DNA of 64,000 bases. It comes from Oscillospiraceae bacterium (GTDB taxonomy: Bacteria > Bacillota > Clostridia > Oscillospirales > Oscillospiraceae). Shown one piece after another: positions 33,066-59,812 of the stretch (positions are counted from its first letter, which is position 1; each line of letters opens with the position of its first letter). The translations under genes were made by a program, and so were the position numbers. The notes under the pieces were generated by a model. The model was not told the DNA's origin. It was given only the letters and a program-made list of their open reading frames with translations, and made no database searches. Where the stretch lies: the NCBI GenBank assembly GCA_045595025.1, contig JAZNZR010000087.1:1066-65065 (forward strand), read 5' to 3'.

Positions 33066-33428
33066 ATGAGCACACCTAAAATATTCGAAAGCGAGTTTCG
33101 CTTCTGCCAGATTCTCTGGGAACACGAGCCCATCGGCAGCACTGCCCTCGTTAAGCTTTGCAAGGAGGAGCTGGGATGGAGCAAGGCTACAACCTATACC
33201 GTTATCCGTCGCCTAAGCGAACGAGGTGTGGTTAAAAATGAGAACGCCACCGTTACAAGTCTCGTCAGTCGTCAGGAGGCTCAGCTATCGGAGATAGACG
33301 CCCTTGTAGAGCGCAGCTTCGGAGGTAGCCTCCCCGCATTTATTGCCGCTTTCACCGGCCATGCAAAGCTGAGCAAGGAGGACGCAACAACCCTCATGCG
33401 GATGATAGAGCACTATGAGGAGGTGTGA
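33066..33428 (+). CDS. BlaI/MecI/CopY-family repressor (pair 3)
   Basis: 120 aa. FESEFRFCQILWE...WSKATTYTVIRRLSERGVV. Confidence 0.9.
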   Translation: MSTPKIFESEFRFCQILWEHEPIGSTALVKLCKEELGWSKATTYTVIRRLSERGVVKNENATVTSLVSRQEAQLSEIDALVERSFGGSLPAFIAAFTGHAKLSKEDATTLMRMIEHYEEV

Positions 33429-33430
33429 GA

Positions 33431-38059: not shown

Positions 38060-38493
38060 ATAAAAGAGTACGAATTTTGACCCAAATAATGATTATAGCA
38101 ATTCTTTTAGTAAGTACTATTCAAGAAGTGTCTGCAAAAATGTCAGCCGAGCAGTTAACTACTGCCCGGCTGATTTCCGTAATTTAATTAGATCGTCTTT
38201 CATTCGAATGCCGACCATGATGTCATTTATATATGCCGTTTCCGGCTTGAAGATCGGCTCTTAACAGTAATGCTTTTTATTTGACGCTCTGGAGGTAACA
38301 TTCGATGTTTTTTAGATGACTGCATCTGAATATTGCTGGAATGATTATAGTATTTGTCATTGTCTTAAAGTCAAAATACCATCTGTCACTAATTAGCGAC
38401 TCCTGCGCCTTGTACATTAACAAAATAAATGATATGCTATTTAGTAATTTATTGTGTCGATTTGTCGGAATACAACGGAGGTGCACCCACCAC

Positions 38494-42287: not shown

Positions 42288-42401
42288 ACTTAAACCTCTG
42301 TTTCGATGATTTTACCACTAATACATAAAATGAACGTCTCTTACAAAAAGGCAAATCTTCACCACATCAAGTGTTGTAAAGCATTTTTGTTAATAACAGA
42401 A

Positions 42402-45122: not shown

Positions 45123-45631
45123 ATCTCACTATTACCTCCTTCGCTTCTGCTTAATAGGTCACTAAAATCAGCATCCACTCCGGCTGCAATCTTTGCCAGA
45201 GAGGAGATTCGAGGATTGACAGTTCTCTTGTTCAGGGTTCGGTTAATGGTAGCTGTATCCAAACCCGTTTCCATATAGATGTGTATCTCCTTTTTTCCCG
45301 CAGCCACCAGACATCTTCGTACATTCGAGCTGAACACTAAAAGGAAATCATCCTCTGTAAAATTCTCATCCCATACGCCTGCATCACTATCGAAGGATCT
45401 CGAAAACAGTTTTGTCAGCGGAACATTAAGCGCACGGGCAATTCGGATCGCCGTGCTGAGCTGTATGTCCTTCTCGCCTAGTTCCAATGCCGAGATATAC
45501 TGGCGACTGTAACCAGAAAGCATCTCTACATCCGAGAAAGAATATTGCCTTCTCTCACGGACGCGCTGAATGTTACGGCCAAAAATTTGCAAAACACTTG
45601 CACTATATACTTTTGCCTCTTCTGTGACCAC
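45119..45631 (-). CDS. Double-HTH XRE-family protein (putative R-M controller)
   Basis: GTG start 45631 (AAGGGGTG SD). Two HTH_3-like units: GYSRQYISALELGEKDIQLSTAIRIARAL and GLDTATINRTLNKRTVNPRISSLAKIAAGV. Confidence 0.7.
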   Translation of the reverse strand: MVTEEAKVYSASVLQIFGRNIQRVRERRQYSFSDVEMLSGYSRQYISALELGEKDIQLSTAIRIARALNVPLTKLFSRSFDSDAGVWDENFTEDDFLLVFSSNVRRCLVAAGKKEIHIYMETGLDTATINRTLNKRTVNPRISSLAKIAAGVDADFSDLLSRSEGGNSEI

Positions 45632-45715
45632 TGAATATCACCCCTTTTTCATCTTGAGACCATTATAGCTTTTATTGCCAGTTGTGACTTGATGTATCTA
45701 TATCATTTTTGAGGG

Positions 45716-45752
45716 CGCAAAAAGGCTGGTTAGCAAATTGCTAACCAGCCTT
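45716..45752 (-). terminator. Rho-independent terminator between the MTase and controller/REase genes
   Basis: 14-bp stem AAGGCTGGTTAGCA / TGCTAACCAGCCTT with loop AAT. The reverse strand is followed by TTTTTGCG. Confidence 0.85.
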
Positions 45753-45767
45753 CTCAAAAATTTTGGA

Positions 45768-47792
45768 CTATTTTATTTTCTTAAGGATCTCCAAAGCTAT
45801 TGCATGGGCCATCAGCGGGGGTACTGCATTTCCAACCTGCGTATACTGAGGAGTCTCAAGCTTGCGCCGGTCACCGCCGGTCGTGCGCTTTCCTTGGAAG
45901 ACAAAGCTATCATCAAAGGATTGTAGTCTTGCCATCTCACGAACAGTCAACGAACGGTTAGATGCATAATGTGTGAAATCATCCGCAAGTGTCACAACCG
46001 TTGTGCTAGGCTTGTCCGCGCGCAAACACGAATAGTTGCGTTTGTTTGTCTTCAGCAACGGGTTGTCCGGCTCGCACTCTTTAGCTTTATGGTAATCTCC
46101 ATATTTTCTAATCAATGCATATCGTGCTTGCACTTCGGCATTATGCTTTGATGTTTCGTGGTTTTGAAGCACCGCAGATTTTTCGGCAGAACTCGAAAGT
46201 TCTTCGATTGCGTTAGCGGGGGTATAAACCGGCAACGCTTTTTTCAGCGCAGGAAATCTTTCGGGGTTCAATCGTCCTTTTCGGCTCCACTCTGCATATG
46301 TACGACACTCTTCCCCAGAACCAGCTTTATCTGCCGGCACACCAAACTTAGTCCTTGCAACAGCACCATATTTACTACATTTATGTTTCTGATAAAAAGC
46401 CTCATCGTAATCGGACACGCATTCTCCGATACCAATATAGTCGAGATCACCGATTGCTTCGGCTACACCGACTTTTTCTTCGTCGGTTACAGTGGCAGGA
46501 ATACTTGTGATTAATTCTTGATCATTTCTACAACCGATGAAGACTACTCGAGTACGATTCTGCGGCACACCATAGTCGGAAGAAAGCAATGTAATAGGCT
46601 TCTCGATTCTATACAACGCCACTTTATCGGCAATCGCGGTAAGCTCACCGTGAAGATCAGACCGATGAATAGAAACAAGCTTCAGCAGTCGCTGCATCGT
46701 CGCAAAGACGCCCTCATTTACAATTTCGAGCGCAAGGCGAACCTTTTTGGTTGCCACCAAAGATTTTGTATCTCTGGCATCATCAATCAGTCTATCGCAC
46801 TGCGTCACTGCAGCATCAATAATGGAATAGATGCTCAAAGTATCGGTCACATTATCAAACTGCTGCTTATAATTGCTTCGATTCAGATGGGACGCATTAA
46901 TTTCACGAATAACACGGTCTCTGATATTTGTCAGATCGGTCTGGTGGGAGATAAGAAGCAGCGCCTGACGAATTACATTTCTATCATCTTCTGGAATCTC
47001 TTTGTTGTTTCTATACGCGTCAACAAACTCCGAAGATAGGGTGGCACAGAACTTTTCAAGATCTGGATTAGAAATATCATTTTTGCTTTTTAGCAACGCA
47101 TCAAGCGCAAATGCTTTTTGCTGAGCAGACAGTCCGGTCGTCTCCAAGACAGAGACTGCTTTGATATAGTCAGCTCGTCTTTCTGCTGTGCGTCTATTCT
47201 GCTCGATCCAGACTTTTAACAATCTGAGGCATAATTCATACTCGATCTTCGCCTCTTTGAAACACTCACCAGATTGCGTAGATCTCTCGCAATTCAGAAC
47301 CAACTCTGCCAAGGCTTCATAGTCAACAATGTTCATGATTTCTCTCAAGATTCGCTCTTTGACTTTGCCGTTATCTTTCGTCAAAATTCCGGCAACATTT
47401 TCCATGACAAAATATTTAGGTCTAATCGCTTCGATTACCTTTAGATAGTAAGCAAACAGATCGTCTTTTTTATCGTTTTTCTTACGTTCTCCGGCCAAAC
47501 TGAAAGACTGGCACGGAGGCCCTCCGACAAGGACATCAACACTCACATCGCCAAATGTATCATTAATCCTCGCCTGAAGTGTTTCAATAAAATCGGCAGC
47601 TGTAATATCCTTTGTCAAAAATTGTGTGTTGAGCCCAAGTTGACGATTGTAACGCATCACATGAGTCACTTCACAAGTGGGATTAATGTCACTTGCTAGG
47701 AGGAAATCATAGTATGCGCCATTATACTCCGCTTGCAAAAAGCCTTCACTAAATCCACCTGCTCCTGCAAACATATCGATAAATGTAGGCAT
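45768..47792 (-). CDS. DNA (cytosine-5) methyltransferase with a ~230-aa insertion between motifs VI and VIII
   Basis: Start set at ATG 47792 (AAAGGAGG SD). Motif I FIDMFAGAGG, IV GGPPCQSFS, VI ENV, VIII QNRTRV, IX RSLTVREMARLQSF, X GNAVPP. Confidence 0.9.
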   Translation of the reverse strand: MPTFIDMFAGAGGFSEGFLQAEYNGAYYDFLLASDINPTCEVTHVMRYNRQLGLNTQFLTKDITAADFIETLQARINDTFGDVSVDVLVGGPPCQSFSLAGERKKNDKKDDLFAYYLKVIEAIRPKYFVMENVAGILTKDNGKVKERILREIMNIVDYEALAELVLNCERSTQSGECFKEAKIEYELCLRLLKVWIEQNRRTAERRADYIKAVSVLETTGLSAQQKAFALDALLKSKNDISNPDLEKFCATLSSEFVDAYRNNKEIPEDDRNVIRQALLLISHQTDLTNIRDRVIREINASHLNRSNYKQQFDNVTDTLSIYSIIDAAVTQCDRLIDDARDTKSLVATKKVRLALEIVNEGVFATMQRLLKLVSIHRSDLHGELTAIADKVALYRIEKPITLLSSDYGVPQNRTRVVFIGCRNDQELITSIPATVTDEEKVGVAEAIGDLDYIGIGECVSDYDEAFYQKHKCSKYGAVARTKFGVPADKAGSGEECRTYAEWSRKGRLNPERFPALKKALPVYTPANAIEELSSSAEKSAVLQNHETSKHNAEVQARYALIRKYGDYHKAKECEPDNPLLKTNKRNYSCLRADKPSTTVVTLADDFTHYASNRSLTVREMARLQSFDDSFVFQGKRTTGGDRRKLETPQYTQVGNAVPPLMAHAIALEILKKIK

Positions 47793-47929
47793 AGCAGAAA
47801 CCTCCTTTTTGATGTTAATTGACATTATAGCAGAATATAACTCAAATGTCCAGGCCCTATTTTCTTTTTCTTTCCTAATTCTCTCTGTTCAAAACACGGC
47901 AACCAAGTTAGTCACAATGTCGAAACTCG

Positions 47930-47958
47930 TTGAAAATAGCCGCGTTTTAGAGTATAAT
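47930..47958 (+). promoter_or_regulatory. Near-consensus sigma-A promoter of the 9.6-kb helicase operon
   Basis: TTGAAA (47930-47935), exactly 17 nt, TATAAT (47953-47958), about 105 nt upstream of ATG 48063. Confidence 0.6.
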
Positions 47959-48062
47959 TTAGTCAAGTTCAACAACAAGCTATATTTTGCATTTTAGAAA
48001 GCGGGTTTGAATCCAATTTGACCGACTGCACTAATCAGCAATTATTCGAACGGAGGTTGCAA

Positions 48063-50873
48063 ATGAATATTTTTGACAAGATCCAACACTATATTACCCG
48101 TTCGGAAACGAAATTACTTTCTCAAATCCCGGTATCTGACAACGAGTATGGCGAGTTGTTAAAGTACGTGAAATCATATGTCCTTCGGATGTATATGCAA
48201 ACCGTGGTTCCTGCTGATGCAATTGTATCGGTTTGCTTAGTTCAAATAGCCATCCGCACATATGCTGACGGAAACTATTGGGAATATTTTCTCGACGAGG
48301 TAGGCCTCGATGTTTCTGCCTCAAAACGAAATTATATTGGTCGGATATTTGCTGCAACTCTTAAAAAATACAATTTATTTGAAATCGCACACGAAACTGG
48401 TACCAAGTATGCATATGTCGAAAATATAAAGGCACATGCTTTTGTGCCTAACAATTATTTGTCCGGTTATTTTGATTTCTTATTTGCGTTTTATGATAGA
48501 AATATTCTGCGCCAATTACCAGACAATATTGATGAAGACTATCTGGAAATGTCCGAATTTTTCGCAAACACATTGCACGAAAGCGGAGATAGCTTCAGTC
48601 TAACTACACTAAACAACAAGCCTGCCAAGTCCTACAAGCTATTAAAAGCGACACGCACATTATTTGCTCAATGCGCACCAGATGTTGTCAGTCAAGAAAT
48701 CTATCGACATCTCAAAATAATTGACGATTATTATTACGATGATATTCTACCTAACATTGACGACAGATTTGGCGAGGCGTTTGCACTCTGGCAAAAAAAG
48801 AATGCCGAGATTAATGATCGAAACAAGGGCACCACAAAACGAAAAAGTGGAGCATTTTATCACAAACCTTATTTTTGTATTAATCGAAAAGATGGCACAG
48901 CCGAATTAATTATCCCAGAGCAGAAAATACGCAACGATGACTTTAACGGCGAAGTTGTCGCTAAAATCATTTGCGGCAATAGCACAAATGAATACCGCCT
49001 AAACTTATATCGCGCATTCGGTGTCATTGTATCTGAGCAAATCAAGATCCCGATCAGCAATGTCTTCTGTCACATTGAAATCACTATTAAATCTCGCACA
49101 GAAAAACGGTTTGATATTCCAGATCGTCCTTACCGCATTTTTGACGAAGATTCTATCGAGATTTTAAAGCTTCGATCTGGACAAAACTATCTTGTTACAC
49201 AAAAAGACGCCGAGGTCCGTGGGCAAAAAGCTGTATATAAGAACAGCACATTATCCACGTGGGATGAATATTCTTTTTCGAACATTGATGAAAAGTCTGT
49301 AATTTACATCAACAACTACCCGATCTCAATGATCGGAACGTTTGCTGATGGCCCTAATTTTACTCATGTTTCTAACGAGTACAAATTATCTTATGACGGC
49401 CACGAAATCCAGACTGCATTCCGACATCCCACTCTCTCGTTCCGCTTGTCCAAGGAAACATATAGTAGAGCTTTTTTGTGGTGCAATGATGAAAAATATC
49501 TGGTAGATGATATTGCAGTTTCCGTCGTGGATCTTCCGTATAGTCCTGATTTTTACGGCATTACCGTTTTGTTGCAAGACATATTAGATGATGCTGCAGG
49601 TCTGTATCGCATTTTCGTCGATGAACCCACTAAGCCCAAACGCGAAGTCTGCAAATATGTCTATCTTCCTAACCTGCGCTGCTATACAGAAAAAGCTAGA
49701 TATATTTTTTCCACCGAAGCCTCCATTACGATCATCGGTGAATATACAATTACCCCCATTAACTCCAGCATAATCGAAGTTGCCACGAACGAATATCTAG
49801 TTGACTTGAGCCAAGGCGTTGAACAAGGTGAGTTTTATGTAGAAATCGCAGGTAAACCATACACTCTCATCATTCCATTGCAAGTTTTCAAACATGGATT
49901 TGAAAAACGGTGGCAATACGAAAGACCTGACTATATTTGGGCTTCAGATCTAAAAAACGATCTGTATATCTCTATGCCCGGAGCAACCGAGGCTAGAGTA
50001 TATGTTGCCTCCAAAGACTCCAGAAAGAGCGCCTACGGAGTCCACCATGGCAATGGAATCTTTAGATTTGACATTTCAGAAATAGCAGAATACATCCGTA
50101 ACAGCCCCACCCCTTTTAATTACATTTCCCTAAAATATAGAGACAACAAGGAGCGAAACCTTTCCCTCTACAGAGTGCTAAATAGACTTTATGTGCATAA
50201 GGCAGACGTATTGTTTGACCATGATCAAGTGTTTGTAGATATATTTTATGAAGGAAAAAACGACCTAGTTTTACGTTTTGTCGAGGAAGGTACAGGACAC
50301 AGCATAGTAGAAAAAACTGTTCATAATGGCAGAAATGAATTCCCGGAACTCTCTGCGCAGGGATTGTACACCATGCACATGCTTGAAATGGTACCGGATC
50401 CCTTTGGATTTTCCACTGAGACCCATAGCATAGGCAAACCACGAACTAGGGTCGGCGCAATTGATTATATCGATATCTCTAACTGCAAAATTAATATCCA
50501 GAAAATTCTATATCACGGCCAAGAGCTTTCTCTCGACTATTCCTATGCCGTTTTTTCTTTAGAAAAGCAAGATCAGTTTACTTATACCGGCATTCTTTAT
50601 GAGCAAAAAAAGCTAGCGCCATCCTTGCCAAAAGCAAAATCTACCGCGCTTGTGAAACCGTTGCTAATCGAAGGTGTTGTGGATAACGGCGATTTCTTTA
50701 TTGTTTCTGTTCAATCTGTGTACGAAGACGATGTTTATGATCCGCTGTACTATGACAGAAAAATGAAAAAACTTACCAGAAGCGACCTCGTTTCTGGTAA
50801 AGATTATTCCAGATTCATCCCTCTTTACGATGATTCGAGTGAATACCAAATCCATATACGGAGGATAAAATAA
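48063..50873 (+). CDS. 936-aa protein of unknown function (position and size of Druantia DruH)
   Basis: Start set at ATG 48063 (CGGAGG SD). No Walker, nuclease or Zn motif recognised. Its stop overlaps the next start (TAATG). Confidence 0.75.
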   Translation: MNIFDKIQHYITRSETKLLSQIPVSDNEYGELLKYVKSYVLRMYMQTVVPADAIVSVCLVQIAIRTYADGNYWEYFLDEVGLDVSASKRNYIGRIFAATLKKYNLFEIAHETGTKYAYVENIKAHAFVPNNYLSGYFDFLFAFYDRNILRQLPDNIDEDYLEMSEFFANTLHESGDSFSLTTLNNKPAKSYKLLKATRTLFAQCAPDVVSQEIYRHLKIIDDYYYDDILPNIDDRFGEAFALWQKKNAEINDRNKGTTKRKSGAFYHKPYFCINRKDGTAELIIPEQKIRNDDFNGEVVAKIICGNSTNEYRLNLYRAFGVIVSEQIKIPISNVFCHIEITIKSRTEKRFDIPDRPYRIFDEDSIEILKLRSGQNYLVTQKDAEVRGQKAVYKNSTLSTWDEYSFSNIDEKSVIYINNYPISMIGTFADGPNFTHVSNEYKLSYDGHEIQTAFRHPTLSFRLSKETYSRAFLWCNDEKYLVDDIAVSVVDLPYSPDFYGITVLLQDILDDAAGLYRIFVDEPTKPKREVCKYVYLPNLRCYTEKARYIFSTEASITIIGEYTITPINSSIIEVATNEYLVDLSQGVEQGEFYVEIAGKPYTLIIPLQVFKHGFEKRWQYERPDYIWASDLKNDLYISMPGATEARVYVASKDSRKSAYGVHHGNGIFRFDISEIAEYIRNSPTPFNYISLKYRDNKERNLSLYRVLNRLYVHKADVLFDHDQVFVDIFYEGKNDLVLRFVEEGTGHSIVEKTVHNGRNEFPELSAQGLYTMHMLEMVPDPFGFSTETHSIGKPRTRVGAIDYIDISNCKINIQKILYHGQELSLDYSYAVFSLEKQDQFTYTGILYEQKKLAPSLPKAKSTALVKPLLIEGVVDNGDFFIVSVQSVYEDDVYDPLYYDRKMKKLTRSDLVSGKDYSRFIPLYDDSSEYQIHIRRIK

Positions 50874-53800
50874 TGCTATTCCGGCCAGCAGAAAGTTCAA
50901 AACGAATAGTTGATTTCTATAGAAACTATTTACTTACTACCTTTCGCACCAACAAGGACTACTATAACACTCAGCTGGCACAAGAGCTGGCAGAAGATGG
51001 TGTTATTTCTAGCGGTCCTTACATCAGCATGAGTGACTGTTACGCAAAGGATCGGTCTATCCGAGATCTTGTTGCCGAGAGAATTGTCACTCCTAGTTTG
51101 GGAGAATTATCTGCTCTGCATCCCGAACGTTCATTGTACAAACACCAAGTTGAAGCCATCTGCAAAGCAAACGAAGGTAAAAACCTGATTATTACAACCG
51201 GCACCGGTTCAGGAAAAACAGAATGCTTTTTGATTCCCGTTCTTAATCAATTGATGCAAGAAAAAGAAGCTGGCACATTAGATGCCGGTGTTCGAACTCT
51301 GCTAATCTACCCCATGAACGCGCTAGTCAACGACCAAATTCGCCGCCTTCGCGAAATTTTTGATGCTTACGGCGACGAAAGCATTACGTATGGCAAGTTC
51401 ACTGGTGAGACGGAAGAAAAATATATCAATGCGAGAAATGAGTTTATCAGCCGAGAGGGCGTAGAACCCAAACGAAATGAGCTGATTTCACGCGAACAAA
51501 TGCGTGCAACACCGCCCAATATTCTTATTACAAACTATGCGATGCTAGAGTATCTTCTCTTGCGTCCTGGTGACAGCATCTTCTTCAACGAACAAAATGC
51601 TAACAAATGGCGTTTTATCGTATTAGATGAGGCTCACACTTACGGAGGCGCAAAAGGTATTGAAGTAGGCACGCTTCTTAAGCGAGTCAAAGCGATGCTT
51701 GGCAAGGATGACATTCAATTTATGTTGACATCCGCAACTCTGGGCGACGAAAGCGACAACCCCAAAATTGTTAATTTTGCTTCATCATTGTGCAACGCAC
51801 AGTTTGATGAAAACTCTATTGTACGATCTGTTACAACACCGCCGACAAAGCCTGCCACAACTAAAGCTCTAGACTTTTCCATCTATCGCCACTTAGCCGA
51901 GGAGATCAGAAACAATTGTTCTCCCGAAAAAATATTGGACTGGCTCAGAGAAAACGGTATAGATGTCGTTCAGTGTGACACACCCGCATCCACGCTCGAA
52001 CAGACACTATATAACATGATCCTCCACGACTCTTTTTACTACGATGTGCGCCGCAGTCTACTAAACCACACAAAACCATTGTTGCAACTATCTAAAGAAT
52101 TAAATACTTCCGCAGATGATGTAACTGACTTTATTGCTGTAGCCTCCAACGCACAAATTAACAACGACAAAATATTCGAAGCACGATATCACATGTTCTT
52201 GCGTGGAATGGAAGGTGTTTTTGTAACCCTCCATCCCAGCAATCAGTTGTTCGTAAAAAGAATGGAGACATTCAAAGCAGATCCTTTTGACGATGATTGT
52301 GGTTATAAGGTTTTTGAAATTTCCTTTTGCCATAATTGTGGCGCCGTTTTCGTTGTTGGTCAAACACAAGATGGATATCTTGTCCAAAAGTCTAAATTTA
52401 ATGACGAATACGACCCCGAAGTATATTTGTTAGATGGTTACTACGATGATGACGAAGGCGAAGACGAAGAACCTGAAGATAACAAGTATACGGTTTGTGC
52501 AAAATGTGGCGCAATAGCCAGAGCTTCCGCAATTCCTGGTCTTTCTTGCGGACACGATAAAAGCAATTATAATACGCTTATCAAAGTGAAGGACAAAGGT
52601 GATGTTTTACACAGTTGTCCATGTTGTCATGTCACAAACACTCAGCGAAGTATCATTCGCCCGTATTTTTTGGGCAACGAAGCTGCCACTGCAGTCATTG
52701 CAACAGCACTTTATAATGAACTTCCCGACACAAAAATAACAACTAAGACAGTCGTATATGAAGATGAGTTTTTTGGAGGTGGCAATTCATCTGAAGAAAT
52801 TGAAGAACACGAAAAACTTGTCAAGCAATTTCTAACCTTCTCCGACAATCGTCAGGCTGCAGCATTTTTTGCTTCGTACTTAGAAACTACATATAGGGAT
52901 AATCTGATTAAGCGCATAATGGCACAGGTCGCTTACGACAATCAGGCAATCATGCAAAGCGGAATGAGTCTCGGCAAATTTGTTTTTGAAGTCGCACAGC
53001 TAATGAAAAAGTACGGGATTTATGCGGCTGAAGATCGCGAAAAGCAAGCATGGATGGCCACGTTGAAGGAAATGATGAATTACAAGGCGCAGAACTCTCT
53101 GCAAAATGAAGGTATTCTGTACTTTGACTTTGATTTCGCCATGCCCAAAAACGACCGACTGGGCCTTTCTGCCGAAGAGACTACAGAGCTATTCAAATCC
53201 TTGATGAAAATCTTTATGCGCGACGCTGCAATTGTTCTGCCGATACCGTTGAGCGATACAGAAATTCATTCTTTGACATTTGGTAGCCCAATCAAGGGCT
53301 ATTCCAAAAATTTTACACAGAAAAAATATGTAATATCTTGGCTTCCTAAGAGTGAGAAGGAGAATATCCGCACCAGGATTATTAGCAAGCTGTTTCCTGA
53401 TATGGATCTAGAAACAATCCATAAACTTCTGGGATCCATTTGGGACAAACTTTGCCATGACAGGATTGTGACTTACGACAGCCAAACTCAAAAATATCTG
53501 CTTGATCTTGGAAACGTTATTGTCAAAACAGTAGATGAACTGTTCATTTGCGATGAATGCAAAACTATCACCCCCTACTATTTGCGGGGCATATGCACAA
53601 ATAAACGCTGTTCAGGACATACCGACCCCTATGACTACAAATGCGCCCGAGCAACAAATCACTATTTCCACTTGTATCATGACTTGAAGATTAATGACCT
53701 CATCGCCCACGAGCACACTGCTCAGCTTGGCAGCCAAAAAGCCTACGAATATCAAAATGCTTTCAAGAGCAAAAAAGTTAATGTTCTCAGCTGTTCAACA

Positions 53801-55999
53801 ACCTTTGAAATGGGCGTTGATGTAGGTACATTGGAAACAGTTTTCATGAGAAATATGCCTCCTTCCCCAGCAAATTACGCACAGAGAGCTGGCCGCGCAG
53901 GTCGAAGCACCAAGTCTGCGGCTTACGCAATTACCTATTGTCCAAATAGCTCCCACGATCTGAACTTCTTTAAGAATCCTGTAGATATGATCAAGGGTTC
54001 CATTTCCCCCCCTGCATTTAACGTAAACAACGAAAAAATTGTATTGCGCCACATCTTTGCTTCTGCATTTTCATTTTTCTGGAAAAAATATCACGAGCTC
54101 TACAAGCATACTGCAGGAGAGTTTTTCGAGGCAAACGGCATTGCAGAATTCAAGCAATATCTGGATTCAAAACCCGATAATCTCAGGGACTATCTCTGTA
54201 AAATCACTAGCACCGAAATTCAACAGGCCTATGGTATTGATACATTTTCTTGGGCAGAAAAATTATTTTCTGAAGATTCAGATGCCCCCGGTGTGTTTGT
54301 CATAGCCCAGCAAAAGTATCAATCCGATCTCAAAGAACTTGAGGATGCACTTGCTTCCGCCGTTACTGCACAAGGCAGAGCAGAAGCTGGTTCAACCGAG
54401 GTTCGACAGTTGGCATTTAAAATTTCCTCAATTAATGCCTCGATAAAAACCCTAAAGCATCAGCAACTTATTGAGTTCCTTTCTAGAAATAATTTAATTC
54501 CCAAATATGGTTTCCCCGTCGACACGGTAGAACTAAAGAGTGCTGGTGTCGGAGGTCAATTAGACTCTTTGCGTCTTGACCGAGATCTTTCCTCTGCAAT
54601 TTCCGAGTATGCTCCCGAATCCGAGATTGTTGCAGACGGAAAACTAATCACCAGCCGCTATGTCAGGGTTCTAAAGGGTTATGCTTGGCCAGAATACAAC
54701 TATGCTATTTGCGAGCATTGCAAAACCATGACCCGTGTGTTGTTCACCGAATCCCTGCCAGAGCATTGCCCTCAGTGCGGACACGACCTTCCGCGTAGAA
54801 GGCTTTCGTACATCATCCCGAAGTTTGGTTTCTTGATGGATAGTGATGGTGCCAAAGATGTTGGTACTGCAAAACCCGAACGCACTTATAAAGGCGCAAT
54901 CTCCTATATTGGAGATGGAAAGCGAATTGAAACTCACAACTTCTCTATTTGCGGAAAAAAGGTAGTGTTTGGAACTAGCAAAATGGACGAGCTCGCTGTT
55001 CTAAATTCCTCCGATTTTTATATCTGCAAAGAATGTGGTTATGGTGAAATTTTCGAAAACTCGTTGGACTTTTGTCGTGAAAAAGAGCACCGCAAAGCTG
55101 ACGGTTACCGATGCACTTGTAAAACACTTTATCCATATGCACTTGGTCACGAATTCCAAACTGATGTTGTCCTCCTAAAGTTCACCTCAGAAAACATTAC
55201 CAATATCGATGCTGCATGGACCATTTTGTATTCATTGTTAGAAGGTCTTAGCAAGTATCTTTCTATTGATCGAACGGAACTTTCGGGTTGTTTACATTGG
55301 TTTAGAAACGAGGATGTTGGCGGAACGGGAAATTACGGCTTCGTTTTGTTTGACAACACTCCAGGCGGTGCCGGTTATGTTCGTCAGCTTAGAAACATCA
55401 CAACATTTACCGGGATGCTGAGCGAGGGACTCAGAATTGTATCAAGTTGTACCTGTGGTGGCGAAGCTGCAGATACTGCGTGTTATGGTTGCCTGTGCAA
55501 TTACTACAACCAAAAACAACACGATATCTTGAAGCGAATCTATGCTATCGATTTTTACCATTCTCTCAAAGGAACTAGCGAACAATGGACCGGCATCCAG
55601 CTCCCGGATGATGAATTGCTAATTTCTCCCCCAAGAGAAGGCGTCGTAGCCGCGTTCAACAACGATGGCCAAAATCAATCCGCCATGCCATATCGTGAAA
55701 TATGGGACTACATTGCTCAAGACACGGATGACCATGACGAAATTGAACTTTTTGCTGAACTGGCTATCAGTAGCGAAGCTGATGCAGCAGAAAAGCCATT
55801 CTATAATGGATCTATTCGTGTTATAGAATCTGGAAAGATTATTCCTGCGGATCTTGTATGGCCCGAAAAGAAACTTGCTTTTTTCCTCAAAGAAAACGCA
55901 GAGCATTATTTCGAGGCTCAAAAAACAAATTGGCATGTCTTCTGTATGCAGAACACCTTTTCCGCAGAAGACTTGTTGCACGTACTATGCGGAGGATAA
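50873..55999 (+). CDS. 1708-aa DEAH-box SF2 helicase with MrfA/YprA-type DUF1998 Cys cluster (DruE-like)
   Basis: TGTGSGKTE (motif I), PMNALVNDQ (Ia), VLDEAH (II), TSAT (III), QRAGRAGR (VI). Terminal cluster SCTCGG...ACYGCLCNYYNQ. Several extra CxxC pairs. Confidence 0.85.
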   Translation: MLFRPAESSKRIVDFYRNYLLTTFRTNKDYYNTQLAQELAEDGVISSGPYISMSDCYAKDRSIRDLVAERIVTPSLGELSALHPERSLYKHQVEAICKANEGKNLIITTGTGSGKTECFLIPVLNQLMQEKEAGTLDAGVRTLLIYPMNALVNDQIRRLREIFDAYGDESITYGKFTGETEEKYINARNEFISREGVEPKRNELISREQMRATPPNILITNYAMLEYLLLRPGDSIFFNEQNANKWRFIVLDEAHTYGGAKGIEVGTLLKRVKAMLGKDDIQFMLTSATLGDESDNPKIVNFASSLCNAQFDENSIVRSVTTPPTKPATTKALDFSIYRHLAEEIRNNCSPEKILDWLRENGIDVVQCDTPASTLEQTLYNMILHDSFYYDVRRSLLNHTKPLLQLSKELNTSADDVTDFIAVASNAQINNDKIFEARYHMFLRGMEGVFVTLHPSNQLFVKRMETFKADPFDDDCGYKVFEISFCHNCGAVFVVGQTQDGYLVQKSKFNDEYDPEVYLLDGYYDDDEGEDEEPEDNKYTVCAKCGAIARASAIPGLSCGHDKSNYNTLIKVKDKGDVLHSCPCCHVTNTQRSIIRPYFLGNEAATAVIATALYNELPDTKITTKTVVYEDEFFGGGNSSEEIEEHEKLVKQFLTFSDNRQAAAFFASYLETTYRDNLIKRIMAQVAYDNQAIMQSGMSLGKFVFEVAQLMKKYGIYAAEDREKQAWMATLKEMMNYKAQNSLQNEGILYFDFDFAMPKNDRLGLSAEETTELFKSLMKIFMRDAAIVLPIPLSDTEIHSLTFGSPIKGYSKNFTQKKYVISWLPKSEKENIRTRIISKLFPDMDLETIHKLLGSIWDKLCHDRIVTYDSQTQKYLLDLGNVIVKTVDELFICDECKTITPYYLRGICTNKRCSGHTDPYDYKCARATNHYFHLYHDLKINDLIAHEHTAQLGSQKAYEYQNAFKSKKVNVLSCSTTFEMGVDVGTLETVFMRNMPPSPANYAQRAGRAGRSTKSAAYAITYCPNSSHDLNFFKNPVDMIKGSISPPAFNVNNEKIVLRHIFASAFSFFWKKYHELYKHTAGEFFEANGIAEFKQYLDSKPDNLRDYLCKITSTEIQQAYGIDTFSWAEKLFSEDSDAPGVFVIAQQKYQSDLKELEDALASAVTAQGRAEAGSTEVRQLAFKISSINASIKTLKHQQLIEFLSRNNLIPKYGFPVDTVELKSAGVGGQLDSLRLDRDLSSAISEYAPESEIVADGKLITSRYVRVLKGYAWPEYNYAICEHCKTMTRVLFTESLPEHCPQCGHDLPRRRLSYIIPKFGFLMDSDGAKDVGTAKPERTYKGAISYIGDGKRIETHNFSICGKKVVFGTSKMDELAVLNSSDFYICKECGYGEIFENSLDFCREKEHRKADGYRCTCKTLYPYALGHEFQTDVVLLKFTSENITNIDAAWTILYSLLEGLSKYLSIDRTELSGCLHWFRNEDVGGTGNYGFVLFDNTPGGAGYVRQLRNITTFTGMLSEGLRIVSSCTCGGEAADTACYGCLCNYYNQKQHDILKRIYAIDFYHSLKGTSEQWTGIQLPDDELLISPPREGVVAAFNNDGQNQSAMPYREIWDYIAQDTDDHDEIELFAELAISSEADAAEKPFYNGSIRVIESGKIIPADLVWPEKKLAFFLKENAEHYFEAQKTNWHVFCMQNTFSAEDLLHVLCGG

Positions 56000-56001
56000 C
56001 T

Positions 56002-57708
56002 ATGGCAATAATGATTCCCAACATACCGATTGATGTGCAACCAGGTAGCCGCGAGGATGAGATGTTTTATTCGTTAAGCACTTTGCCTGATGAATACTAC
56101 GTTTTTCATTCCTTTATGCTTATCACTAATGTCGATGGTATTTTACGCGAAAGCGAAACAGACTTTGTTGTTTTTCATCCCGAAAAGGGAATAATTTGCA
56201 TTGAAGCCAAAGCCGGACGAGTTAAGTGCGTAAATGGCAACTGGTTCTACGGTTCCGGAAAGGCTATGTCGCACGGTGGCCCCTATAGACAAGCTGATCT
56301 GAATAAATGGAAGCTCGAAAAGTACTTCTCTCAAAATGGTTTAAGTGCCCTTTGGCATAAATGCAAAGTACTACATGCAGTATGGTTCCCATCGATTGAT
56401 CGTGCGTACTTAAATTCTATTCATTTTACTTCAGACGCTGATAAGACAATCACTTTGACTAAAGAAAGTCTTACATCTGTCGAAGCTGATATTAACCGGC
56501 TTTATTCTATTCAGCTACCTGCCGGGGTGGAAACAAACCTGTCAAAGCATGAAGCACAAAAAATACTATCAAACGTTCTATGCCCTTCGTTTGATTTGGT
56601 TCCTTCGGTTGCATCTGAACTTAGTTTAAAAAGGAGCGCATTCAATCGCTTACTAAAAGAGCAAGCCAACATTTTGAATTTCTTAGAAGAGCAGCCATAT
56701 GCAATAATCAATGGCGTTGCAGGAACTGGCAAAACAATGATTGCTCTCGAAAAGGCTCGCAGACATGCCGAGAATAGTGAACGTGTGTTGTTTTTATGTT
56801 ATAACCGTCTTCTTTGTGATTTCTTGCGAGAAAACTATGCTCATGAGCAAATATCGTATTATACGATTGATGCGTTAGCGTGTAGTCTTTGCCAAACAAG
56901 TTCTGCAGATTATGAGCTTCTTGAGGAAAAGCTGGAATTACTTTACTATGACGGCCACTTCCCATATAAGCATATCATAATTGATGAAGGGCAAGATTTT
57001 GGTCAGGACCGAATCGAGGAAACTAGAATAATCGATACGTTAGAGACTATTGTTCTCAGCAGTGAAATTGAAGGAACATTTTATCTGTTTTACGACAAGA
57101 ATCAACTAGTTCAAGGGCGACAAATACCCAAATACATCAATGAAGCTGATTGCAAACTAACACTTTATCGAAATTGTAGAAATACAGAGAATATCGCCAT
57201 CACTTCCATGCGCCCTCTTGGAAAAGAGAAAATACCTAAAATGTTTAAGGGTGCTGTTGCCGGTGATCCCACTCGTATTTATATTTCCGACAAGGTAGAA
57301 GACCAGCTTGGTTTCCTCGACAAAACATTGCGCAAACTTCTAGATGACAAGATCAAAGATATCGTTATTCTTACCTGTACTACGGCAGAGAAAAGTTTTC
57401 TTCACCCATACCTGCAAGGTGGAAAATATAGGAGATTGGGTGCAAATATAGACTTTACAACATGTAGAAAGTTTAAGGGACTGGAGGCAGATGCAGTTGT
57501 CCTTGTAGACATTACTGCAGATACTTTTGATAATTATAATAGGCTTATGTTCTATGTTGGCGCTTCAAGAGCGCGGTTTAATCTAACTGTGATATGCAAC
57601 ATGTCAGAAGAGGGCTGCCATCAGGTGATTTCCGAATTGGGTGTTCAGTCTACCAAGAAGCCAAAGAAAGTTCTTGCTGCGGCACTCAACTCGTTGCTAT
57701 CGCAATAA
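56002..57708 (+). CDS. NERD (PD-ExK nuclease-related) domain fused to a UvrD/Rep-like SF1 helicase
   Basis: Start ATG 56002 (GCGGAGGA SD, 2 nt after the upstream stop). SETDFVVFHPEKGIICIEAKAG (D...ExK). Walker A GVAGTGKT, Walker B IIIDEGQDF, and C-terminal KGLEADAVVL / YVGASRAR. Confidence 0.8.
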   Translation: MAIMIPNIPIDVQPGSREDEMFYSLSTLPDEYYVFHSFMLITNVDGILRESETDFVVFHPEKGIICIEAKAGRVKCVNGNWFYGSGKAMSHGGPYRQADLNKWKLEKYFSQNGLSALWHKCKVLHAVWFPSIDRAYLNSIHFTSDADKTITLTKESLTSVEADINRLYSIQLPAGVETNLSKHEAQKILSNVLCPSFDLVPSVASELSLKRSAFNRLLKEQANILNFLEEQPYAIINGVAGTGKTMIALEKARRHAENSERVLFLCYNRLLCDFLRENYAHEQISYYTIDALACSLCQTSSADYELLEEKLELLYYDGHFPYKHIIIDEGQDFGQDRIEETRIIDTLETIVLSSEIEGTFYLFYDKNQLVQGRQIPKYINEADCKLTLYRNCRNTENIAITSMRPLGKEKIPKMFKGAVAGDPTRIYISDKVEDQLGFLDKTLRKLLDDKIKDIVILTCTTAEKSFLHPYLQGGKYRRLGANIDFTTCRKFKGLEADAVVLVDITADTFDNYNRLMFYVGASRARFNLTVICNMSEEGCHQVISELGVQSTKKPKKVLAAALNSLLSQ

Positions 57709-57714
57709 CGACAG

Positions 57715-57894
57715 TCAGCATTCAGTATGTTCTCTTCGCAGTTTAGTCTTCTTATGAATCTTAATGAGCAGCTCGTCCACCGCGTCGGCATACCGTCCCT
57801 GTTCGATAAGCGCATTGCGGAATTGGATTAGGCCACGCAGCATCAGGCGATATTCCTCTCCCGTTAGAGTCAAAATTCGTTTAGGTGCTCTCAT
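57715..57894 (-). CDS. 59-aa conjugation-module small protein (below the ORF-track cutoff)
   Basis: Hand translation: MRAPKRILTLTGEEYRLMLRGLIQFRNALIEQGRYADAVDELLIKIHKKTKLRREHTEC. AGGAGG SD 9 nt upstream. Co-directional with the T4SS genes. Confidence 0.55.
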   Translation of the reverse strand: MRAPKRILTLTGEEYRLMLRGLIQFRNALIEQGRYADAVDELLIKIHKKTKLRREHTEC

Positions 57895-57901
57895 ATGTAA
57901 A

Positions 57902-57943
57902 AACCTCCTATGTACACTCTACCTTGAGTATACATAGGAGGTT
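57902..57943 (-). terminator. 13-bp hairpin plus U tract whose 3' arm is the SD of the next ORF
   Basis: AACCTCCTATGTA (57902-57914) and TACATAGGAGGTT (57931-57943) are perfect complements. On the reverse-strand RNA the distal arm reads TACATAGGAGGTT followed by TTTTACAT-ATG. Confidence 0.6.
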
Positions 57944-57964
57944 CTCTTTCTGCAAACATACGGC

Positions 57965-59812
57965 TTACAACGCGGGAATGCCGTAGCCATAGATTTCATA
58001 GTGACCAATGCGGTAGCTTCTTTTGCGGCAGGAGTCGCCAGAATTGCCCTCAATGGTGTGGACATATCCGTCCTCGACATATTCCACGATACCCACATGA
58101 TCGGTCACTCCGTCCTGCGGACCTGCAGAACCGTTGGGCGAATCCCAGTCAAAGAATATTATCATGCCAGGTACCGGTGTTGCGTTGCCATCAGCCCACT
58201 GACCTCTGTCCTGAAACCACAGCGCACCCCAGACACAGCCAGCGAATTTAGGTATGATACCCAAATCAATATAGCCACACTCATTGGCGCACCACGACAC
58301 AAAGCAGGCACACCATTCCACACGGGATGTGAACCCATACCAGCTCCAATATGGTTCACCTCCTACATTGCCTATCTGGCTTTCAGCGACGGCAACTATT
58401 TGCTCATCCGATGAATGGATTCCATACAGAACCGATGCCCAAAGCATCAGGTTTTCATCGCGTAGCAGTTCCTCAAGCATCTGCTTCTGTTCATCATTAA
58501 AGCCATGTCCCGAGGCCATGTCCTCAGCGGTTTTATGGCTTATGGTAATATACAGCGTCGTCACATTCTGAATCGTGGGGGTCTCAATAATGTTTCCTTC
58601 CTCATCAGCACTCTCTTCAACCACTGTCTCCTGCGTTGTTACCAACCTGTGCTCAATTCGGTTCATTTCCCAGAAGATTTCTTCAAGCATAGACTTCTTC
58701 TCCTCATTGACTGTTGCAACCTCTTGCGGCTCATCTGGGTCTGTGTTCAGCTTGACAGCATACACCGAAAGCACCTCCGGCCAGACAGCTCTTGCTCCTG
58801 TGGTCTCCACCTTGTCATACTCAAGTGTGTTTCTGAGTCTGTCTATTTGCGATTGGTAATCCATGTTCAATTCATGTACCACGCTTTTCATCGTCATGGA
58901 TGAATTCGTATCTTCGCTTGAGAAAAATATTCCGTATGAAGAGCCAGCCACAAGGGCCACAAGCATAATGACAACAATGATTATAACCAACACCCATCCG
59001 CCTGCAGCGATTGCAACCACCAACCCTTTTATAGCCGCGATAATCGCCTTGATGATTTTTGCAACAACAAAGGCCGCCCTCCTTGCCGCCTCCGCTGCAG
59101 CCTTCGCACTCGCCTTTGAAATTTGCACAGACTTTTGGGCGGCTTTTGCCGTCGCCTGAGCACTTTTCTGCGCCGCCTTTGCGCTTTCCTGCGCAGTTTT
59201 GATTGCAACCTTGGAAGACTCTTCTGCGGTTTTTATCGCCCGTTGACCGCTCTTTATGGACCTGTCTACGGATTTGATGGCCTGTCGCTTTGTCTCGCTT
59301 TCAGACAGTCTGGAGACTTGCTGAAGCCGCATAGATATTGCCTTATCGCTATGCGAAGTGCTTTGCGGAGCTTGTGTCGTCCGATTCTCGGAAGAATCCA
59401 TATTTTGAAGAGGCATCGATTTAGATAACTTTGAGCTACTTTGTGAAGCATTGACTCTCTTGCGAGCTGTCGCCCTTGCCACCTCATAACGTTTCGCTTT
59501 GAATCTCTGAACCGCCCTTTCGGCATCTGGATTGGTCATGTTTTGGATGCCCAGTTTCGCCTCCTGATAAACGATTCTTCCACCATCCTCAACAATGCAC
59601 CACGCATCAGAGATTGCGTTTTCTGTTGCATTCTGCAGCTGCTCAGCTGCATATTCGTCTGGGCTGACCTGCCCATCGTTCACAACATTCTGAGCCCTGT
59701 CTGCTGTGCGGATAAGGGCTTTTTTCATCTTATCGGCAAGGTCTGCATCACGGTCGAGAGTCTTTATTGTTTTTGCGTCTTTTAGTTTAATATCTTTCGT
59801 AGCAGAGCCCAC
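57965..59812 (-). CDS. Conjugation-associated cell-wall hydrolase (coiled-coil/TM N-part, C-terminal CHAP/NlpC-P60 domain)
   Basis: 615 aa with a GTG start (uncertain). The C-terminal WCACFVSWCANECGY ... DHVGIVEYVEDGYVHTIEGNS gives the Cys and His of the CHAP pattern. Confidence 0.8.
   Translation of the reverse strand: MGSATKDIKLKDAKTIKTLDRDADLADKMKKALIRTADRAQNVVNDGQVSPDEYAAEQLQNATENAISDAWCIVEDGGRIVYQEAKLGIQNMTNPDAERAVQRFKAKRYEVARATARKRVNASQSSSKLSKSMPLQNMDSSENRTTQAPQSTSHSDKAISMRLQQVSRLSESETKRQAIKSVDRSIKSGQRAIKTAEESSKVAIKTAQESAKAAQKSAQATAKAAQKSVQISKASAKAAAEAARRAAFVVAKIIKAIIAAIKGLVVAIAAGGWVLVIIIVVIMLVALVAGSSYGIFFSSEDTNSSMTMKSVVHELNMDYQSQIDRLRNTLEYDKVETTGARAVWPEVLSVYAVKLNTDPDEPQEVATVNEEKKSMLEEIFWEMNRIEHRLVTTQETVVEESADEEGNIIETPTIQNVTTLYITISHKTAEDMASGHGFNDEQKQMLEELLRDENLMLWASVLYGIHSSDEQIVAVAESQIGNVGGEPYWSWYGFTSRVEWCACFVSWCANECGYIDLGIIPKFAGCVWGALWFQDRGQWADGNATPVPGMIIFFDWDSPNGSAGPQDGVTDHVGIVEYVEDGYVHTIEGNSGDSCRKRSYRIGHYEIYGYGIPAL

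Follow-up and report, generated by a model that had tools for sequence, protein, structure and literature searches.

The locus described here raises the question of whether a nuclease-helicase gene, tightly coupled to the two genes of an apparent Druantia system, belongs to that system or forms a second one beside it. The window analysed, a 64,000-nucleotide stretch of DNA, holds this three-gene operon, which the first-pass annotation had compared with Druantia type III carrying an extra gene, as either a three-component variant with nuclease activity supplied in trans or two stacked systems. From sequence, we predict with a probability of about 0.6 that the three genes make up an anti-phage system belonging to the Druantia family, near the compact, PLD-less subtype III-B.

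Operon layout and genomic setting

The three genes form one operon on the + strand (48063-57708), with a single promoter and tight coupling, and its main features are as follows.

47930..47958, + strand: sigma-70-type promoter TTGAAA-17 nt-TATAAT (TTGAAA 47930-47935, TATAAT 47953-47958), read directly, driving the three-gene operon
48063..50873, + strand: gene 1, 936 aa, DruH-like partner protein, by its position before DruE, size and predicted fold
50873..55999, + strand: gene 2, 1708 aa, compact DruE, a YprA/MrfA-like SF2 DEAH helicase with MZB/DUF1998 and without PLD (PADLOC, Pfam, PDB, motifs)
56002..57708, + strand: gene 3, 568 aa, NERD nuclease domain fused to an SF1 UvrD-like helicase (Pfam, PADLOC)
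57903..57944 (approximate), no strand assigned: strong hairpin 3' of gene 3, before the convergent conjugation genes (RNA fold of 57690-57960, z-score -3.4, long stem)

The signals first read from this region were all recovered. The promoter scores 11/12 and is the top + strand match across 47600-58100; the sole other 11/12 match lies on the - strand of the same 237-bp spacer and is divergent, serving a methyltransferase gene. A GGAGG stands 6 nt 5' of the gene 1 ATG, the TAA of gene 1 and the ATG of gene 2 overlap as TAATG (50871-50875), and gene 3 starts 2 nt past the gene 2 stop with its own Shine-Dalgarno sequence, GGAGGA, 6 nt 5' of its ATG, a translational coupling that is kept across loci. 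No strong promoter match was found in the window directly 5' of gene 3. The 9.6 kb also proved to be free of any convincing + strand intrinsic terminator, with merely weak 5-7 bp consensus matches inside the operon, and the hairpin past gene 3 is the first strong one along it; its T-run is on the - strand, and it is probably a bidirectional terminator.

A type II restriction-modification system adjoins the operon, G+C falls over it, and the region lies within a conjugative element near VirB4-like and CHAP genes, a defence-island setting that favours an anti-phage role. The operon is probably cargo of the conjugative element, whose host would be of Clostridia type. The location inside such an element, together with the membership of DruE in the YprA/MrfA family, some of whose members are repair helicases (PMC12458937), would also suit a module that serves the element in DNA repair or DNA processing, in the style of MrfA/YprA, rather than immunity. 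This explanation is highly improbable, as the top matches of the helicase are to defence-branch DruE models rather than to repair YprA, the patchy distribution and repeated loss described below are typical of defence cargo, and the neighbourhoods change from locus to locus (restriction-modification systems, transposases, recombinases) with no fixed set of conjugation genes.

A compact DruE and its DruH-like partner

The domains of the first two proteins were placed as follows.

48063-48815, + strand: gene 1 helical N-domain, aa 1-251 (AlphaFold2 model)
48870-50870, + strand: gene 1 beta-sandwich (Ig-like) domains, about seven, aa 270-936 (AlphaFold2 model)
51140-51751, + strand: gene 2 DEAD domain, aa 90-293 (Pfam)
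53714-53908, + strand: gene 2 Helicase_C domain, aa 948-1012 (Pfam)
55229-55495, + strand: gene 2 MZB domain, aa 1453-1541 (Pfam)

By its profile matches and motifs, gene 2 is a DruE, as had been proposed. The PADLOC models DruE1 (2.7e-173) and DruE3 (1.6e-167) both match it, and among PDB sequences it matches 9tu7, a DEAD/DEAH box helicase of 2108 aa (8.7e-84), and the YprA structure 6znp (1e-17). Its reading frame has one stop only, and the SF2 motif set reported earlier is complete at verified positions (TGTGSGKTE 109-117 with K115, VLDEAH 250-255, TSAT 286-289, QRAGRAGR 1004-1011), as is the four-Cys cluster, CxC...CxxC, at about 1525-1540 within the Pfam MZB match. A Pfam search of gene 2 found no PLD or other nuclease domain.

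Gene 1, at first called an orphan, has 112 homologues in a database clustered at 90% identity and matches 841 representatives in a library with one representative per 50%-identity cluster. DruE lies directly 3' in 34/34 loci that extend past the gene 1 homologue (one of which, L023, breaks off inside DruE), the fragments L034 and L036, unreadable past gene 1, being outside this count. Gene 1 has no match in Pfam, PADLOC or NCBIfam, and no DruH profile, whether tried through PADLOC, NCBIfam, Pfam or hhalign, recognizes it; the STY4851/ECs_5259 (YjiT_fam) family model gives the E. coli DruH 1258 bits and gene 1 no score. Its AlphaFold2 model (mean pLDDT 85.8) has a conserved polar patch on the helical N-domain, and the best Foldseek matches are multi-Ig ectodomains. 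DruH has been reported with a helical N-domain and Ig-like repeats, as in gene 1, and the C-terminal helical domain of DruH is absent from gene 1. The likeness of gene 1 to DruH thus extends to position, size and modelled fold architecture only, while sequence homology to DruH cannot be shown, and because the C-terminal helical domain is lacking as well, DruH biochemistry transfers only weakly to gene 1.

The type III layout originally recognized, in which a coupled DruE comes after a large domain-less protein, nevertheless holds, the compact PLD-less III-B (PMC12458937) being the closer fit. As in Druantia III-B (Bell et al. 2025, PMC12458937; PMC13316683), the first protein is large, carries no annotated domain and shows translational coupling to a DruE of ~1600-1700 aa; this DruE combines the SF2 core with MZB and is free of PLD domains, and the whole is found within a defence island of a mobile element. 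Two-gene relatives of the window locus, e.g. in Acetivibrio clariflavus, look exactly like III-B. Unlike III-B, the window operon adds the tightly coupled NERD-SF1 helicase gene, its DruE bears a C-terminal domain (CTD) of ~115 aa matching gene 3, and gene 1 departs from DruH in profile matches and C-terminal domain. With Druantia III-A (E. coli/P. aeruginosa DruH-DruE; YjiT/YjiV) it shares the order of a large partner gene first and DruE second, the homologous DruE core seen in the 9tu7 match, and a first protein in which Ig-like domains follow an alpha-helical N-domain; in contrast, III-A has two genes rather than three, its DruE of about 2100 aa ends in two PLD domains of which the window DruE has none, and its DruH belongs to the YjiT_fam family that leaves gene 1 unmatched.

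Gene 3 and DruE's C-terminal domain

Three further features bear on the third gene.

55640..55996, + strand: DruE CTD, ~115 residues, aa ~1590-1708 (alignments), candidate docking domain
56056-56355, + strand: gene 3 NERD (PD-(D/E)xK) domain, aa 19-118 (Pfam NERD, 2.5e-09)
56650-57606, + strand: gene 3 SF1 UvrD-like helicase, aa ~217-535 (Pfam UvrD_C_2, 4.5e-10)

The longest ORF for gene 3 would start at 55858; this start was set aside for 56002, which is conserved in orthologues. Gene 3 matches PADLOC RTasNERD-Hel over its full length (3.7e-63), and 23 orthologues show no variation at E52, D54, E68, K70, the Walker A K244 or D328/E329; at the sequence level, the catalytic motifs of both nuclease and ATPase are intact.

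When neighbourhoods were surveyed from gene 1, gene 3 was syntenic in 24/32 loci with a readable DruE end (window included), and genes 2 and 3 are never more than 12 nt apart in any intact three-gene locus. The three genes have correlated pairwise distances (r = 0.94-0.98), the observed value being reached by 0/2000 permutations in a Mantel test. An HMM survey tied gene 3 to the CTD: gene 3 directly follows DruE in 27/27 CTD-positive loci and is absent from 8/8 CTD-negative ones, and no surveyed locus keeps the CTD without gene 3. DruE measures 1687-1711 aa where both are present and 1578-1612 aa where both are missing. The CTD has no match in Pfam or among PDB sequences, and a Vsr-like identity was rejected, there being no similarity to a Vsr protein. 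The pairing was also seen from the side of gene 3: each of three sampled gene 3 homologues at 52-57% identity, picked solely by the length of their contigs, lies directly 3' of a DruE-type helicase bearing the CTD (hhalign 99.7-99.9%); the first gene in two of these three loci is barely or not at all related to gene 1, so that CTD and gene 3 are also paired on divergent helicases whose first genes are unrelated.

The two-gene forms are scattered over the DruE core tree, at five or more positions, implying that CTD and gene 3 were lost together at least five times. In the two-gene locus L016 and the three-gene locus L017, 94.4% DNA identity extends to DruE codon ~1595, and homology ends exactly at the L016 stop codon. 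Gene 3 of L017 may itself be decaying. As the CTD adjoins gene 3, one deletion can take both, and their co-loss partly reflects physical linkage; the clean breakpoints at the domain boundary and the lack of CTD-only loci argue for more than linkage alone.

Two stacked defence systems on one transcript, a two-gene compact Druantia and a stand-alone Nhi-like gene 3 sharing its promoter, would agree with the eight loci without gene 3, with the functional two-gene compact Druantia of M. smegmatis (PMC13316683) and with the general gathering of defence genes in islands. Single-protein nuclease-helicase defence is known (Nhi), and gene 3, like Nhi and RTasNERD-Hel, joins a nuclease domain to an SF1 helicase, but its matches to PADLOC Nhi (5e-07) and AbiO are weak and confined to the helicase part, no reverse transcriptase adjoins it, and, unlike stand-alone nuclease-helicases, it and its close relatives stand behind a DruE with a dedicated CTD. 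Against stacking are also the perfect tracking of the CTD, which holds in 3/3 sampled homologues at 52-57% identity, the divergence of the three genes in step, and the short junctions, with no strong promoter match before gene 3 in the window. Stacking is therefore unlikely, and of the two options first offered the three-component variant is favoured. From the co-occurrence of CTD and gene 3, their repeated joint loss, the correlated divergence and the presence of both on divergent helicases, we regard gene 3 as integral to the system.

A proposed mechanism and its relation to other systems

Type III-A DruE has been characterized as a 3'-5' helicase on ssDNA-containing substrates (10.64898/2026.05.13.724758; 10.64898/2026.05.12.722862), and the compact DruH-DruE pair of M. 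smegmatis (MSMEG_1253/1254) protects against phages (PMC13316683). By homology to characterized DruE, gene 2 would be the core motor, loading on exposed ssDNA or duplex/ssDNA junctions in intermediates of phage replication or recombination and then unwinding DNA 3'-to-5'. Gene 1, in the place of DruH, would probably bind or process ssDNA and help to license DruE. Gene 3 would be recruited by docking on the DruE CTD, and its putative nuclease would degrade, in trans, the DNA engaged by DruE, a task that in type III-A systems is assigned to the PLD nuclease present in cis on DruE. Nuclease activity has been reported for that PLD domain, although the need for it in type III-A is disputed, one group finding the PLD domains dispensable, and there are also reports that type III-A DruH is a nuclease (10.64898/2026.05.13.724313; PMC13192584); the nuclease is thus 'missing' only from the compact DruE of this operon, not from Druantia at large.

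Gene 3 might instead be an optional accessory module that widens the phage range, counters anti-defence or acts as a back-up toxin, comparable to ArmD; this is a less likely alternative, which differs from the integral three-gene system solely in how central gene 3 is. The joint losses that leave genes 1 and 2 intact speak for it, as do the possible decay in L017 and the nuclease reported in DruH, and since two-gene forms persist and the related M. smegmatis pair works, gene 3 is not essential to the core mechanism. It also has a parallel in ARMADA type II (Bell et al. 2025, PMC12458937), where a YprA-like helicase is likewise directly followed by an SF1 UvrD/GajB-like helicase with an N-terminal toxin/nuclease domain; ARMADA, however, has an upstream BrxHII-like helicase and a PglX-like methyltransferase, neither present in the window operon, and its SF1 helicase (ArmD, RelE-GajB-like) carries a RelE-like RNase where gene 3 has a NERD nuclease. 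On the other side, the compact DruE encoded here contains no nuclease domain, and three quarters of the surveyed loci retain gene 3 with invariant catalytic residues, which points to strong selection where it is present.

The integral three-gene system, whose anti-phage activity we infer, also recalls TALON (Bell et al. 2025; Bacillati) in bringing together a YprA-like helicase and a NERD-type PD-(D/E)xK nuclease; TALON, in contrast, has TPR-cold-shock and TATA-binding-protein genes absent from the window operon, and its helicase is ARMADA-like, whereas the window operon has a DruE-like one, and its NERD domain forms part of a fusion with an SF1 helicase. A CTD-bearing DruE with a NERD-helicase was not found in the papers and defence-system models searched, and the DruE variant with CTD and gene 3 would represent a new form of the known Druantia family.

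A three-gene operon built around a compact DruE

The operon is read here, with a probability of about 0.6, as a Druantia-family system in which gene 3 would serve as a recruited nuclease. Its parts and immediate neighbours are the following.

43842-47825, - strand: type II restriction-modification system, divergent from the operon
47930-47958, + strand: promoter, TTGAAA-17-TATAAT
48063-50873, + strand: gene 1, 936 aa
50873-55999, + strand: gene 2, 1708 aa, DruE (C-terminal domain, CTD, aa ~1590-1708, at 55640-55996)
56002-57708, + strand: gene 3, 568 aa, NERD-SF1 helicase
57715-57894, - strand: 59-aa ORF
57903-57944 (approximate): strong hairpin with a long stem, T-run on the - strand, 3' of gene 3

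The operon coordinates and motifs of the first-pass annotation proved right on direct checking of the sequence. The promoter is the top + strand match in 47600-58100 (11/12), and both 11/12 matches, that of the operon and that of the divergent restriction-modification side, fall in a common 237-bp spacer. Gene 1 ends in a TAATG that contains the start of gene 2, gene 3 begins 2 nt past the gene 2 stop and is preceded by GGAGGA, and gene 2 has its four SF2 motifs and its terminal Cys cluster at the places given. The claimed absence of an internal terminator also held: within the operon the + strand offers weak terminator-like matches only, and the first strong hairpin is the one beyond gene 3, which probably terminates the CHAP/VirB4 conjugation genes and is, if bidirectional, probably the sole strong stop for the operon. 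The 59-aa ORF, with a good ribosome-binding site and no PADLOC match, converges on gene 3 with the stops 7 nt apart, so that transcripts running on from the operon would be antisense to this ORF.

Gene 2 is a compact DruE, of the kind named Druantia III-B or 'type III-like' (Bell et al., 2025; PMC12458937), because it matches PADLOC DruE1 (2.7e-173) and DruE3 (1.6e-167), carries the Pfam domains DEAD, Helicase_C and MZB, has as its closest solved structure by sequence a 2108-aa DEAD/DEAH box helicase (9tu7, 8.7e-84; YprA, 6znp, is a more distant relative), and has no PLD family among its Pfam matches, ending ~170 aa past MZB. It thus has the feature shared by all Druantia types, an SF2 DEAD/DEAH helicase of very large size whose C-terminal part is a DUF1998/MZB zinc module. 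The lack of PLD rules out subtype III-A, whose DruE bears two such C-terminal domains, and the length of 1708 aa agrees with the compact, PLD-less DruE of subtype III-B, an assignment by build and not by branch placement. Druantia type IV as defined in PADLOC consists of DruE, DruF and DruL (PMC8565338) and was rejected, genes 1 and 3 matching neither DruF nor DruL; DISARM was excluded on gene content.

Gene 1 and its relation to DruH

Druantia type III has two genes, DruH then DruE, and the order and TAATG coupling of genes 1 and 2 are alike, with a third coupled gene added, so that the operon is not a two-gene system. The type III-like layout proposed at first pass stands for gene order, coupling and DruE; gene 1 matches no DruH profile. 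Nor is gene 1 the orphan it had been called: 112 homologues (27-99% identity, mostly Clostridia) were found in a 90%-identity cluster database, and a profile search over one representative per 50%-identity cluster returned 841 representatives, the distant members being almost all metagenomic proteins according to a cluster look-up.

Gene 1 has no match in Pfam, PADLOC or NCBIfam. In its AlphaFold2 model (mean pLDDT 85.8), residues 1-251 form a helical N-domain, behind which all-beta domains, about seven beta-sandwiches in all, continue up to the C-terminus; a C-terminal helical domain is lacking. The published build of DruH is an alpha-helical N-domain, six Ig-like domains and an alpha-helical C-domain; the gene 1 model resembles this description in its helical N-domain and string of beta-sandwich domains, and has no C-terminal helical domain. 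Foldseek with full-length gene 1 returned strings of Ig/FnIII domains (Ig-repeat ectodomains) that are generic and of low TM-score, and Ig-repeat ectodomain matches have likewise been reported for DruH. The N-domain alone (pLDDT 86, pTM 0.85) gave nothing significant against PDB folds. The DruH structure 9tud, which is in the PDB sequence set and perhaps not in the fold library, is not among the structural matches.

For canonical DruH, the E. coli K-12 yjiT remnant and the full-length gene of strain ECONIH1 served as reference. The remnant matches PADLOC DruH3 at 3.7e-241 and the full-length protein matches NCBIfam YjiT_fam with 1258 bits, a family that does not match gene 1. The PADLOC DruH models match neither gene 1 nor 24 homologues nor nine distant family members, the precomputed Pfam families PF27205/PF27201 occur on DruH homologues and on none of the gene 1 homologues, and hhalign of gene 1 profiles against a DruH profile of 24 sequences gave 1-3% probability, a weak colinear N-terminal stretch alone aligning (E 0.014). 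Identity of gene 1 with canonical DruH (STY4851/ECs_5259, YjiT family) is thus not supported by PADLOC, NCBIfam, Pfam or hhalign, and homology between the two, as far as these comparisons reach, is unproven. A compact DruE follows both a distant member of the gene 1 family (about 20% identity) and a related plasmid protein from Clostridium butyricum (hhalign 98.4%). From the homologue, profile and neighbour comparisons, gene 1 is therefore a member of a large DruE partner family, analogous to DruH in position and build.

The reference loci have features of their own. In E. coli K-12 MG1655 (L039:10415-14856), what is present as yjiT is the N-terminal half of a DruH of type III-A, and yjiV is a pseudogene of DruE; the two, which adjoin mcrBC, are a decayed Druantia III. 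In strain ECONIH1 (L040:10001-19637), DruH is full-length and DruE is annotated as frameshifted.

The DruE tail domain and the NERD-helicase

Scanning one genome per species gave 32 loci with a gene 1 relative, and DruE comes directly after gene 1 in every locus that reaches beyond it. In three-gene loci DruE has 1687-1711 aa and the NERD-helicase follows within 12 nt; in two-gene loci DruE has 1578-1612 aa and there is no NERD-helicase. Alignments place the difference in the CTD, a C-terminal domain of ~115 residues. Profile HMMs run over all loci found gene 3 behind 27/27 DruE with the CTD, three of these loci having been reached through gene 3 and so being biased towards carrying it, and behind none of the eight without, with no mixed case. 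The co-occurrence survey proposed at first pass thus bore out the trio, the third coupled gene being present in the window and 26 further loci. The first-pass annotation had also named, as a combination that would speak against its reading, a gene 1 with no profile or structural similarity to DruH together with a lack of synteny; profile similarity is indeed lacking, but the three genes are syntenic in other genomes.

Two-gene forms occupy at least five separate places in a neighbour-joining tree of the DruE core, and parsimony favours a history in which the three-gene form would be ancestral and the CTD and gene 3 would have been lost jointly and repeatedly. Up to DruE codon ~1595, the DNA of a two-gene locus (L016) and that of a three-gene locus (L017) share 94.4% identity, and homology stops at the L016 stop codon; this pair shows one such event. 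Gene 3 of L017 has an internal stop or frameshift, and DruE or gene 1 is disrupted in several other metagenome-assembled loci (L018, L019, L029 and L030); several such loci carry frameshifts that may be sequencing errors, and the disruptions in these five loci may be decay or assembly errors.

The pairwise distances of the three proteins are correlated (r = 0.94-0.98; Mantel, 0/2000 permutations as high as observed). Three sampled gene 3 homologues (52-57% identity) each lie directly after a DruE-type helicase with the CTD (hhalign 99.7-99.9%). One such locus, L043, has a DruE and a first gene of 1212 aa barely related to gene 1. In another, L044, the helicase ahead of the CTD and NERD-helicase is split and very divergent:

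L044:1471-11713: first gene of 866 aa, no relative of gene 1; YprA-like helicase as two genes, helicase (1204 aa) and MZB (766 aa); CTD and NERD-helicase

Genes for a methyltransferase, a FokI cleavage domain protein and a Vsr protein lie downstream in L044. Because of the strict CTD/gene 3 match, the correlated distances and the same pairing in loci sampled through gene 3, the CTD and NERD-helicase behave as one module. Physical adjacency accounts for part of the co-loss, but leaves unexplained the clean breakpoints at the domain boundary, the lack of CTD-bearing loci without gene 3 and the occurrence of the module on several helicase lineages. Gene 3 is probably an integral, co-evolving component of the system.

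Gene 3 carries the Pfam domains NERD and UvrD_C_2, and all of 23 orthologues keep E52, D54, E68 and K70 (PD-(D/E)xK), K244 (Walker A) and D328/E329 (Walker B) unchanged; no solved structure is related to it by sequence. Its full match to PADLOC RTasNERD-Hel (3.7e-63, residues 1-530) would make it a reverse-transcriptase-associated NERD helicase, but no reverse transcriptase lies in or beside the operon. Among the PADLOC profiles suggested at first pass, DruE matched gene 2, DruH gave no match and Nhi matched gene 3 weakly (5.2e-07, residues 217-392 alone); an identity with Nhi was rejected, since the model covers only the helicase part and gene 3, like its relatives, sits inside a DruE operon. 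The motif ADLVWPEKKLAFFLKEN...NWHVFC prompted the idea that the CTD is a Vsr/DUF559-like, possibly inactivated, nuclease. This is unsupported: the CTD alone and 18 orthologues have no Pfam match, PDB sequences gave no meaningful match, hhalign found no similarity to a Vsr protein, and acidic positions are not conserved in the alignment.

Among known systems, Druantia III-B is the closest, and the operon differs from it in the third gene, the matching DruE domain and a first protein that is not of the DruH family. ARMADA type II (a BrxHII-like helicase, a PglX-like methyltransferase, a YprA-like helicase and a RelE-GajB-like helicase; PMC12458937) offers a parallel, in that the gene after its YprA-like helicase encodes an SF1 helicase with a toxin domain attached, but the operon has no BrxHII or PglX gene, gene 3 has NERD and not RelE, and BrxH models match gene 2 in generic helicase motifs only. 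In TALON (a YprA-like helicase, a NERD nuclease, a TPR-cold-shock fusion and a TATA-binding protein; PMC12458937), too, a NERD nuclease accompanies a YprA-like helicase, but no TPR, CSD or TBP domain occurs in the operon or the scanned flanking genes. A full-text search on NERD helicases with Druantia or DUF1998, which took in part of the large supplementary table of Bell et al., found no account of such an arrangement and no NERD-helicase as a Druantia component, in keeping with the first-pass suggestion that a three-component variant may be undescribed.

Genomic setting, proposed mechanism and meaning

With restriction-modification upstream and convergent genes for a CHAP-domain protein and a VirB4/TraG-like ATPase downstream, the operon is cargo of a conjugative element, inside a small defence island. 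Its G+C is 39-43%, that of either side 45-50%, and the surroundings of related loci contain TnpV, relaxase, RepA_N, serine recombinases, transposases and other restriction-modification systems. The upstream system is complete: along with a C5 cytosine methyltransferase of 685 aa it has an HTH controller protein and an endonuclease of the MvaI/BcnI type; the methyltransferase was rejected as a DruM-like component, as it scores best as a type II methyltransferase, stands with the controller and endonuclease, and is not conserved beside other loci.

Further upstream, 39903-43715 (-) and 38341-39477 (+) contain a 794-aa protein without Pfam or PADLOC match, beside it an HD-domain nucleotidyltransferase that resembles CCA-adding/poly(A) polymerase enzymes, and just upstream a WYL-domain regulator; this may be another defence module of the island. 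As a constant neighbour a WYL regulator was rejected, being directly upstream in a single lineage only. A protein of 1544 aa whose N-terminal part is a BlaR1/M56 peptidase domain (33425-38059, +) and a 1271-aa ORF without PADLOC match (27736-31551, -) lie in regions with a G+C of 52-55%, above the rest of the window.

The DruE of type III-A acts as a dimer that loads on ssDNA or at junctions, with unwinding in the 3'-5' direction (10.64898/2026.05.13.724758; 10.64898/2026.05.12.722862). DruH of type III-A binds ssDNA and is inhibited by ATP in one report and is a 3'-5' exonuclease in another. Two groups find that the DruE PLD nuclease is needed, and a third finds that it is dispensable. In M. 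smegmatis, a compact DruH-DruE pair gives protection (PMC13316683). In the operon, the sensing and unwinding core would be as in type III-A, gene 1 would take the DruH role, and the CTD would recruit the NERD-SF1 helicase as a putative trans-acting nuclease effector.

A broader reading, which we hold as tentative and think somewhat less probable than not, has two halves. One is that the CTD and NERD-SF1 helicase could form a portable effector cassette, carried by gene 1-type systems, the DruE of L043 and the split helicase of L044, hence on varied YprA-like helicases. The other is that the gene 1 family (at least 841 representatives at 50% identity) could be a second DruE partner family, either without homology to DruH or too diverged for homology to be recognised, and with an N-terminal fold that has no counterpart in the PDB.

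Of the operon, PADLOC 2.0.0, NCBIfam 20.0 and Pfam recognise DruE alone as Druantia; the large gene 1 family is recognised by no profile library and has no family in these three, and PADLOC files gene 3 as reverse-transcriptase-associated. Loci of this type in gut Clostridia may therefore be called incomplete. The 2026 papers on type III Druantia disagree on whether DNA is cut by the DruE PLD, by DruH or by neither, and the operon family bears on how compact, PLD-less systems kill phage. It provides a natural comparison in one clade: close relatives differ solely in the DruE tail domain and the nuclease-helicase gene, L016 and L017 being 94% identical as far as that boundary, so that the roles of a putative trans-acting nuclease and of a putative docking domain on DruE are directly testable. 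If the broader reading is true, Druantia-type systems would swap the module that does the killing (a cis PLD, a trans NERD-helicase, or none at all) while leaving the motor unchanged.
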